Source: an uncultured bacterium (GTDB taxonomy: Bacteria; Oederibacteriota; Oederibacteriia; Oederibacteriales; Oederibacteriaceae). From it: a stretch of 64,000 nucleotides of DNA. Position 1 is the stretch's first letter. Every line of letters starts with the position of its first letter. The notes below the pieces were generated by a model that saw only the letters and a list, made by a program, of their open reading frames with translations, had not been told where the DNA came from and ran no database searches. This document shows positions 1 through 1,690 of the stretch, in pieces. The DNA is taken from contig OZ218778.1 in assembly GCA_965112635.1 (NCBI GenBank), positions 243,666 to 307,665 of the forward strand, read 5' to 3'. The position numbers were made by a program, and so were the translations under genes.

Positions 1-50
1 ACCACCTCATAAGGAACCGGCACCATCGCGTCTTTATTGAGTTCTTTCAT
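1..50 (-). CDS. 5' end of an unidentified CDS running off the window start (N-terminus MKELNKDAMVPVPYEVV)
   Basis: ATG at 48-50 on minus strand, frame open to position 1; sits 10 nt after the cNMP-binding gene, so probably same operon. Confidence 0.3.
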   Translation of the reverse strand, partial: MKELNKDAMVPVPYEV

Positions 51-60
51 GATGTCCCCC

Positions 61-528
61 TTATGGTTTAACGTTGTAAATGTTGAGTAACTGGAACCGG
101 GCAGCTTCTAAGCGCTGGCTCATGATGACGCTGAACCGGCGCAGCAGCTCATAACCGAGCTCATGGTTGGCCTCGCATTTGCCTCTCAGGCACTTGCCGT
201 CCAGGGCGATGACCTGGGACATTTCTACGGCCTTGGCGTCAAAGCGGTTCTGGTAGGGCGGTATCAGCCACGACCAGCCCAGGATATCTCCTTCGCCCAG
301 GGTCTGCACCGTGATAGGCCCGGCCTCGGGCGAATAAACCTGGACCGCTACCTTGCCGCTGCGGATGATATAGAACTCATTGGCGTCCGCGCCCTGACGG
401 AACAGGAACTGGCCCGGGTCATAACGCCGGTTGCTGGCGCAGCCCACGACGGTCTTGAGATGAGCGTTTTGCAGGCCTTTCAAGAACGGGTGCTTGGAAA
501 GAATAGGTTCTAAGGTCTCTTTTTGCAT
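61..528 (-). CDS. cyclic nucleotide-binding (Crp-type effector) domain protein without DNA-binding domain
   Basis: 155-aa ORF with cNMP-binding signature ([30 protein letters not shown]); AGGAGG RBS; 10 nt after stop of upstream Fe-S gene. Confidence 0.8.
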
Positions 529-538
529 GGTTCCTCCT

Positions 539-1690
539 TCACGCCGTCTTCACGGCCGGCTGGACGCTCTCGTTCCTTATCGTCCTTGCCTCTGCCGTGA
601 TGTCGATGCCGACCGGGCACCAGGTGATGCACCGGCCGCAGCCCACGCAGCCGATCATGCCGAACTGGTCCTGCCAGCTGGCCAGCTTGTGGGTCATCCA
701 TTGGCGGTAACGGGATTTGACGCTGTAGCGGATGCTGCCGCCGTGGATATAGGTGAACGCCAGGTTAAAGCAGGAGTCCCACTTGCGCCACCGCTCGGCA
801 TGGTTGCCGGTCAGGTCGGTCACGTCCTCGACCCGCGAACAAAAGCAGGTGGGGCAGACCATGGTGCAGTTGGCGCAGGACATGCAGCGCTTGCCTACCT
901 TGTCCCACTCCTGGTGTTCCAGGTTGGCGTACAGGAGATTCTTGATGCCGTTGGTGTCCATAGCCCGGCCCATCTTGGACGCGCACTTGTCGCTGAGCTG
1001 CTGTGCCGTGGCTTTGTCGCCGGAGCTCGCCACGGTATAAGGCACGCCCTTCAGGGCCTCGGCCCCTTTGGCTGAGCCGATTTCGAAAACAAAATAATGC
1101 CGCTTGGGTTCCAGCACTTCGGTCATGGCCAGGTCAAAGCACATCAAGGCTTTGGGCCCGCTTTTCATGGAAGCGCAAAAGCAGGTGCTGCCCGCCTGGG
1201 TGCAGTTAACGGCTATGAGCAGGGCTTTTTCCCGTGTTGCGCTGTAGGATGAATCCGCGTATTTCCCTGTCGCGAAGATCTTATCCTGGATGCACATGGC
1301 CATGATCTCACAGGGCCTCATACCGAAAAACGCGTATTTGGCCGGCTCCGGACTCTCTTCTTTTATATCCACGCTGTTGCCTTGGGCATCCGCCTGCCAC
1401 ATCTTCTTGACCTGGGTGAACAGGAACTTTTTCCACGACTGCGGCCCGACACCGTAGCCGAACAGCGCCTTGTCGAACCTTTTTTTGAGCCGGTACACGC
1501 CCGCTTCCTGCTCGTCGGTCCATCCTTCCGGCAGGTCTTTGAGGCTGGCCAGCTCCTCGTAAACGATCGCATTGTCCCGGACTTTGGGCCCGGCCACGCG
1601 ATAGCCTTTAGCGACCAGCGCGTCAAAGAGCTTGGCCATGTCCTGGCGCTCAATGACGACTTGGTCTTTGACCTTTAAAGCTGCTGCCAT
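539..1690 (-). CDS. 4Fe-4S dicluster oxidoreductase subunit, anaerobic sulfite reductase subunit A (AsrA)/sulfhydrogenase-beta-like
   Basis: 383-aa ORF with two CxxCxxCxxxCP ferredoxin motifs ([25 protein letters not shown]). Confidence 0.7.

Follow-up and report, generated by a model that had tools for sequence, protein, structure and literature searches.

Group 3b [NiFe]-hydrogenases are described as cytosolic, NAD(P)-coupled enzymes, and genome-based inference of H2 metabolism makes use of them (Greening et al. 2016, cited in PMC13332983 and PMC12319191); their biochemistry has been modelled on a four-subunit archaeal enzyme (PMC13332983). This reference enzyme, sulfhydrogenase 1 (SHI, HydBGDA) of Pyrococcus furiosus and Thermococcus, is described without a protein of the cyclic nucleotide-binding (CNB) fold (PMC13332983). 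Among characterised hydrogenase components that consist of a CNB domain alone, our literature searches found HoxI only. It sits as a dimer on the diaphorase module of the group 3d soluble hydrogenase (SH, HoxFUYHI2) of Cupriavidus necator (Ralstonia eutropha) H16, where a regulatory role is attributed to it (PMC3189943, PMC12809855); activation by NADPH has been reported by Burgdorf et al. (2005; cited in PMC3189943, PMC12809855 and PMC12319191). Here, we examine positions 1-1690 of a 64,000-nt stretch of contig OZ218778.1 from an uncultured bacterium of the Oederibacteriota (the whole stretch is called the window below). They hold the promoter-proximal part of an operon in which a gene for a 155-aa CNB protein stands between hydB and hydG. 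As judged from sequence comparisons, this protein is a conserved fifth component of the bacterial group 3b enzyme type. We think it probable that it serves as an accessory, regulatory or stabilising subunit of the HydB/HydG module, likely as a dimer and without canonical sensing of cyclic nucleoside monophosphates (cNMP).

The features of this part and its upstream side are as follows.
539..1690, minus strand: hydB (hyhB), encoding a 383-aa AsrA-like Fe-S (beta) subunit of a group 3b [NiFe]-hydrogenase (Fer4_22, sulfhyd_HydB, 9nez_B).
61..528, minus strand: the CNB gene, encoding a 155-aa stand-alone CNB-fold protein without a helix-turn-helix (HTH) and with a degenerate phosphate-binding cassette at residues 84-98 (PF00027, AlphaFold2 (AF2), Foldseek).
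1..50, minus strand: the 5' end (16 codons) of hydG (hyhG), encoding the FAD/NAD(P)-binding gamma subunit and cut by the window edge.
1811..1840, minus strand: a sigma-70-like promoter candidate, TTTACA-18-TATAAT, with 11 of 12 matches in a consensus scan.

The hydB open reading frame (ORF; 1690..539) contains two CxxCxxCxxxCP ferredoxin motifs and is separated by a 10-nt spacer (538..529) with an AGGAGG Shine-Dalgarno sequence from the CNB ORF (528..61), which ends in a TAA stop at 63..61. The ATG of the third ORF lies at 50..48, 10 nt past this stop, and the frame continues beyond the window end. By an exact match of the 155-aa protein we located the same contig in a public assembly (L001, 387 kb), which was used to extend the locus. 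We found that MKELNKDAMVPVPYEV of the third ORF is identical to the N-terminus of a 279-aa HydG-like ORF there. The initial annotation had described an AsrA-like protein with two ferredoxin motifs, followed after 10 nt by a 155-aa cNMP-binding protein and after a further 10 nt by a third gene. Coordinates and Pfam agree with this layout; the exact start of the third gene is 50, not 51, and contig extension identifies it as HydG. The generic AsrA-type oxidoreductase operon of that annotation has to be replaced, given the gene content of L001, by a group 3b [NiFe]-hydrogenase.

Downstream in L001 the order is HydG (279 aa), small subunit (260 aa, Oxidored_q6), large subunit (NiFeSe_Hases), HycI-type protease, HypF and pyruvate:ferredoxin oxidoreductase. 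On the other side of hydB, within the window, are hypC, hypD, hypE and a NikR-like gene. The 383-aa HydB-like protein matches Pfam Fer4_22 at 1.2e-32. Among NCBIfam models sulfhyd_HydB is its best match (1.5e-40), followed by ShyB and then AsrA, all below equivalog cut-offs, and its best match in the Protein Data Bank (PDB) is 9nez_B, the beta subunit of P. furiosus sulfhydrogenase 1 (6.4e-34). The 279-aa ORF contains NAD_binding_1 and DHODB_Fe-S_bind domains and is recognised by the NCBIfam models for hydrogenase gamma (3.8e-59) and sulfhyd_HydG (1.5e-46). For each structural subunit the best NCBIfam models are those of Thermococcales sulfhydrogenases (sulfhyd_HydB/ShyB, HydG/ShyC, ShyD/HydD and ShyA/HydA), and the best solved structures are 9nez (P. 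furiosus SHI) and 5yxy (Thermococcus kodakarensis cytosolic hydrogenase). All structural subunits score far below the equivalog cut-offs, indicating a relative rather than an equivalog of sulfhydrogenase; each of the four, HydB, HydG, small and large subunit, has its homologue in SHI, and the order is the same. The C-terminal ORF of the large subunit in L001 ends in YDPCISCATHFLRLKIERIDS and carries the DPCxxCxxH nickel-binding motif, and the gene after the large subunit encodes a maturation endopeptidase (HycI/hydrog_prot, 1.3e-33). An anaerobic sulfite reductase, AsrABC, was considered and rejected: the AsrA model TIGR02910 gives 106 bits against a cut-off of 323, and downstream are hydrogenase small and large subunits, not AsrC. 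Because the subunits best match sulfhydrogenase models and structures, we assign the operon by sequence to a bacterial-type group 3b [NiFe]-hydrogenase (sulfhydrogenase-type, NAD(P)-linked and cytosolic). For the window, the result is mainly a correct annotation, namely the 5' part of the hyh operon, near which lie hyp maturation genes.

The large-subunit gene, outside the window, is split in L001 (12886-12895) into ORFs of 287 aa and 126 aa by a 1-nt frameshift in a G/C homopolymer run, and one added base restores the reading ...YFVGPLARYNLNF... This frameshift may be an assembly error rather than a sign of a pseudogene; the contig name, contig_13894, is suggestive of a long-read assembly.

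Next, we asked how regularly a CNB gene accompanies group 3b genes. In a one-genome-per-species collection at least 593 stretches encode a CNB relative, and 80 of these loci were examined. The order HydB-CNB-HydG-small-large is present in all 80 as far as the contig reaches, usually with the protease next. The labels of these metagenome-assembled genomes cover Bacteroidota, Ignavibacteriota, Zixibacteria, Acidobacteriota, Planctomycetota, Chlorobiaceae, Nitrospinota, Binatia, Anaerolineales and some archaea. A second set, from a metagenome scan seeded with HydB and not with the CNB protein, comprised 27 loci with room downstream, and the CNB gene directly follows HydB in 26 of them. The same six-gene order was found on RefSeq plasmids of Burkholderia thailandensis (51% identity) and Rhodococcus sp. 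BH4 (29% identity), where the annotated genes overlap by 14 nt, 4 nt and 11 nt. In the 80 loci HydB and CNB are separated by a median gap of 2 nt and CNB and HydG by one of 13 nt, and the commonest HydB-CNB arrangement is a 14-nt overlap. In the HydB-seeded set the CNB protein has a mean identity to the window protein of 48.8%, compared with 52.1% for HydG, 54.1% for HydB and 42.8% for the protease, suggesting that the substitution rate of the CNB protein is close to that of HydB and HydG.

The CNB gene is also found joined to hydB. A 542-aa protein (P0139) is a HydB (Fer4_22) with a CNB domain fused at its C-terminus, and a second, non-identical 542-aa copy exists. In both fusion loci (L085 2924-5110 and L086 1739-3925) the fusion gene is followed by a free 153-aa CNB gene and then by an ORF that is cut by the contig end at the expected hydG position. 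Such a pairing of a fused and a free CNB gene fits a CNB dimer tethered to HydB. The fused and free copies have diverged, and each has lost different cysteines.

Cumulatively, an accessory-subunit role is favoured because of the following: 1) strict synteny; 2) overlapping genes; 3) a substitution rate like that of HydB and HydG; and 4) a natural fusion to HydB. Bacterial 3b operons normally have a CNB gene between hydB and hydG, and the arrangement seen here is not unusual. It is mentioned in PMC11879354, PMC13332983 and PMC12319191, and the window gene is an ordinary example of a widespread family already noted in genome papers. In a Frankia group 3b cluster the gene between the diaphorase genes was called a 'small transcriptional regulator' (PMC11879354), in the Rhodococcus equi cluster a 'cyclic nucleotide-binding' gene was noted (PMC13332983; the term is also used in PMC11879354), and in the group 3b (Hyh) cluster of Methylocystis-type methanotrophs the same gene was labelled HoxI (PMC12319191). 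We searched the literature for work on the function or structure of the group 3b CNB protein and found passing mentions of this kind only.

To place the 155-aa protein itself, domain, homology and structure searches were combined. Its sole Pfam match is PF00027 cNMP_binding (1.2e-15, 57.7 bits, gathering cut-off 27.5), and no DNA-binding domain was found by Pfam domain search. A search of 5.8 billion proteins returned 1465 homologues, the best 120 of which are all 152-161 aa long and 62-69% identical; 69% is the highest identity of the window protein to any database member. From 1.84 billion cluster representatives, a profile search retrieved 639 at E<=1e-30, mostly of 150-160 aa. Longer family representatives (P0137, P0194, P0258, P0189 and P0203) were checked for an HTH and none was found; the tails of P0137 and P0194 resemble frameshifted low-complexity sequence. 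In the AF2 model (mean pLDDT 78.5; one good model of five), N-terminal helices precede an eight-stranded barrel and a long C-helix (122-150), after which the protein ends. The best Foldseek matches are the sensor domain and C-helix of MtbCRP, GlxR and DNR and the sensor domains of PKG, with a TM-score of ~0.7 for CRP/FNR. A family-profile search of the PDB found no solved structure with a close relative, its best sequence matches being sensor domains of PKG, PKA and CRP and the stand-alone Geobacter protein 3mdp. The window protein thus shares with CRP/FNR regulators the CNB sensor domain and the dimerisation C-helix, but it is without their C-terminal winged HTH, ending at residue 155 with the next gene 10 nt on.

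One explanation for the absence of an HTH, raised in the initial annotation, would be that a frameshift has cut a full-length Crp/Fnr regulator and that the ORF is its N-terminal fragment, the more so as the same contig has the 1-nt homopolymer frameshift in the large-subunit gene described above. We rejected it, as homologues end alike at 150-160 aa, the gene starting 10 nt on is HydG and the family members checked are free of an HTH; we give it next to no weight. The 155-aa protein is a genuine, complete stand-alone CNB-fold protein of a large family, without a DNA-binding domain. The initial annotation had already described it as free of a DNA-binding domain and had preferred an accessory subunit to a transcription factor, and on both points we agree: the best 120 homologues are of the same length, the model ends with the C-helix, PF00027 is the one domain found and there is no HTH.

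We compared the phosphate-binding cassette among 106 unique hydrogenase-linked CNB sequences, using E. coli CRP as reference. In the alignment, the family segment G84-W85-S86-W87-L-I-P-P-Y-x-W/N94-R95-F96-D97 falls opposite G71-E72-L-G-L-F-E-E-G-Q-E-R82-S83-A84 of CRP, and the three canonical contact positions are occupied as follows.
Position 85 (canonical Glu, ribose 2'-OH contact): W in 96 of 106, E in 0.
Position 95 (canonical Arg, phosphate contact): H in 45, R in 36, Q in 7, K in 6 and others (n = 106).
Position 96 (canonical Ser/Thr, phosphate contact): F in 93 and Y in 6 (99 of 106), or deleted relative to CRP.

At the Arg position L is found in the Burkholderia member and Q in the Rhodococcus member. 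G84, W87, P91 and Y151 are invariant in the 106 sequences, and an aromatic motif, G-W-S-W-L-x-P-P-Y-x-W-x-F-D, replaces the canonical pocket residues. Compared with CRP/FNR, the cAMP-contacting set equivalent to Glu72, Arg82 and Ser83 is replaced; the window protein has W85, R95 and F96. The canonical cassette (G-E plus R-[ST]-A) was not found across the family in this alignment. With its Glu, Arg and Ser/Thr lost throughout the family, the CNB protein is unlikely to bind cAMP or cGMP in the canonical way. The proposal of the initial annotation, a ligand-sensing accessory subunit, therefore stands in part: synteny, gene overlaps and the fusion speak for the accessory role, and the missing cassette residues speak against cyclic-nucleotide sensing.

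Two observations concern the motif itself. At position 94 (codon ~249..247, minus strand), where 99 of the 106 sequences have W, the window protein has N, and it is the sole sequence to do so. Outside the hydrogenase-linked set, P0123 (JGI contig, gene 3722-4768) is a tandem-CNB relative with the GWSWLxPP motif that adjoins an OEP/RND efflux system and not a hydrogenase, and P0124-P0131 are further tandem-duplicated relatives of 300-350 aa with this motif. The location of P0123 means, therefore, that the wider motif family is not exclusively hydrogenase-linked.

The aromatic, proline-rich loop is either a different ligand site or a self-filled pocket. Both have parallels among CNB folds. The CNB homology domain of KCNH channels does not bind cNMP and contains an 'intrinsic ligand'. 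The regulatory subunit of trypanosome PKA (PKA-R), structures of which are among the Foldseek matches, has a CNB fold with an altered pocket and binds nucleosides. For both, the relation to the window protein is one of fold only, and the partners are wholly different. If the pocket is self-filled, the protein might be a purely structural, ligand-free CNB homology domain that oligomerises the hydrogenase; a C-helix dimer might, for example, link two heterotetramers. Loss of the canonical ligand-contacting residues, an invariant loop that could itself fill the pocket, a long and conserved C-helix and the dimer suggested by the fused and free gene pair are in keeping with such a role. A new ligand site would, however, be just as likely to keep the pocket loop highly conserved, and by sequence a structural domain is inseparable from the accessory subunit that we prefer, of which it is the sub-case without signal input. 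Taken by itself, we regard it as rather improbable.

The CNB protein could instead be a free signalling protein and no subunit of the enzyme. It would sense a small molecule, possibly a cyclic nucleotide bound in a non-canonical way, and a transcription factor, a kinase or another separate partner would pass the signal on to hydrogenase expression or activity. The CRP-type sensor fold with its C-helix, the Arg at the phosphate-binding position in the window protein and about a third of the family, and the label 'small transcriptional regulator' in a genome paper (PMC11879354) would suit this explanation. Set against them are the lack of a DNA-binding domain in the family members checked, the absent canonical Glu and Ser/Thr, the existence of the HydB fusion and the position of the gene between two structural genes, often overlapping both, which is atypical for a regulator. 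We consider a free signalling protein quite unlikely and an accessory subunit of HydB/HydG the better account.

Conserved cysteines are a second feature of the family. Among the 106 sequences Cys30 is present in 104, Cys113 in 102 and Cys118 in 97. In 129 wider representatives, Cys113 occurs in 68 of 97 with Cys30 vs. 3 of 32 without it (Fisher p=1e-9, odds ratio 22.7, phylogeny uncorrected). In the CRP alignment Cys30 and Cys113 fall opposite His17 and Lys101. Lys101 belongs to activating region 2 of CRP (residues 19, 21, 96 and 101), and His17 is two residues from His19. From this correspondence, Cys30 and Cys113 may be close together on the surface. All three cysteines are absent from the Rhodococcus orthologue and they are partly lost in the fused variant; on these grounds a universal Fe-S or disulfide site was rejected, and the cysteines are therefore not essential to the core role of the family.

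These residues are also relevant to the possibility that the CNB protein is an assembly or maturation factor for HydB/HydG, acting in Fe-S or FAD insertion or as a holding chaperone and staying outside the mature enzyme. Hydrogenase operons often mix maturation genes with structural ones, as the protease does here; Cys30, Cys113 and Cys118 could handle metal or thiol chemistry, and Cys30 and Cys113 are lost together across the wider representatives. Yet the actinobacterial orthologue lacks the cysteines with its gene position unchanged, the covalent fusion to HydB argues for permanent association, and we know of no precedent for a CNB fold as a cofactor chaperone. A maturation factor is thus an unlikely, though not negligible, alternative to a subunit.

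The closest functional comparison for such a subunit is HoxI, whose sequence was taken from pHG1. Like the window protein, HoxI is small (167 aa), consists of a CNB domain only, is encoded in a soluble [NiFe]-hydrogenase operon and is without the canonical cassette Arg-Ser/Thr. By contrast, the two share 23% identity over 103 aa (hhalign probability 57%), HoxI is without the GWSWLxPP motif, and hoxI comes after hoxW whereas the CNB gene lies between two diaphorase genes. The partners differ as well, HoxFU being Complex-I-like and HydB/HydG AsrA/AsrB-like. With the hidden Markov model (HMM) of the hydrogenase-linked family, HoxI (35 bits) and E. coli CRP (28 bits) score far lower than the members from Rhodococcus (111) and Burkholderia (234). 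Orthology with HoxI was rejected on the identity, the hhalign value and an HMM score barely above that of E. coli CRP. HoxI is, to judge by these comparisons, a functional precedent and not an orthologue, and it probably reflects independent recruitment.

Several points weigh against an accessory subunit of this kind, or limit it. The 80 genome loci were picked by CNB-protein similarity and are a biased set. In the HydB-seeded set the sole exception, L126 (3-1089), has HydG directly after HydB with a ~85-nt gap and without a CNB gene, and archaeal sulfhydrogenases work as four-subunit enzymes (PMC13332983); because of both, the CNB protein is not essential to the core chemistry. The HydB-CNB fusion is a rare one, known from two contigs that are close relatives. 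AF2 confidence is low exactly in the pocket loop (pLDDT 63-67), so that our conclusion on the pocket draws on the alignment and not on the structure. Retention of the Arg in the window protein and in about one third of the family makes non-canonical nucleotide binding possible. The PDB holds no solved structure containing the CNB subunit, and its physical contact with HydB/HydG is one that we infer.

With these points taken into account, we still favour an accessory subunit of the HydB/HydG module, which could work as follows. The CNB protein would be co-translated with HydB and HydG and would bind their electron-transfer (diaphorase) module, probably as a dimer. Once bound, it would act as a non-catalytic regulatory or stabilising subunit, by analogy with HoxI2 on the C. 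necator soluble hydrogenase. Its input signal is probably not canonically bound cAMP or cGMP; as candidates we would propose that the aromatic pocket stacks a flavin or pyridine nucleotide, or that the protein responds to the redox state of Cys30 and Cys113, possibly with Cys118.

Upstream of hydB, the promoter candidate at 1840..1811 lies ~120 nt from the hydB ATG. The scan with this consensus gave 4 sites vs. 1.4 expected, and from its match to the consensus the site is a putative operon promoter. An Rfam scan of the window gave 0 matches at the gathering score, with no riboswitch or known RNA in the leader or elsewhere, and a scan of window positions 1-2400 found no intrinsic terminator-like site. 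Between this promoter-like site and the stop of a GH130 gene (2246), the intergenic region 1885-2220 is densely palindromic. 16-mers of the CATGCTCAAGCATGCG type are found at 1940, 2051 and 2078, close to related CGTGCTTAAACACGTG palindromes, and 17-nt inverted arms at 1891-1907 and 2200-2216 flank ~326 nt. The palindrome motif has 5 matches vs. 0.18 expected in the window, and the RNA fold z-score of the region is -5.7. Possible explanations are a MITE/REP-like element, a terminator region of the upstream operon and a set of regulator sites. Further along, a PhdYeFM-antitoxin/ParE-toxin pair (5670-6204, minus strand; 91 aa and 92 aa in the ORF listing, 88 aa each in L001) is located inside the hydrogenase neighbourhood, with the hyp maturation genes on one side and a GT4 glycosyltransferase-GH130 pair (2246-5451) on the other.

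A more far-reaching possibility, which we regard as doubtful, is that the CNB proteins form a new class of hydrogenase regulatory subunit that has given up cyclic-nucleotide sensing, in which a remodelled aromatic pocket binds NAD(P)H or flavin, or Cys30 and Cys113 form a thiol or metal switch, or both, gating electron flow between NAD(P)H and the [NiFe] site. Gating of this kind might, for example, protect or reactivate the enzyme upon a shift in O2 or in the ratio of NAD(P)H to NAD(P)+, and it would give widespread bacterial group 3b enzymes a built-in allosteric control, unlike the archaeal model enzymes. If the fifth subunit is indeed regulatory, cofactor specificity, activation behaviour and the conditions of H2 production or consumption could differ from those of the archaeal model. 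It would then also represent a second, independent recruitment of the CRP-like sensor fold into a soluble hydrogenase, after HoxI.

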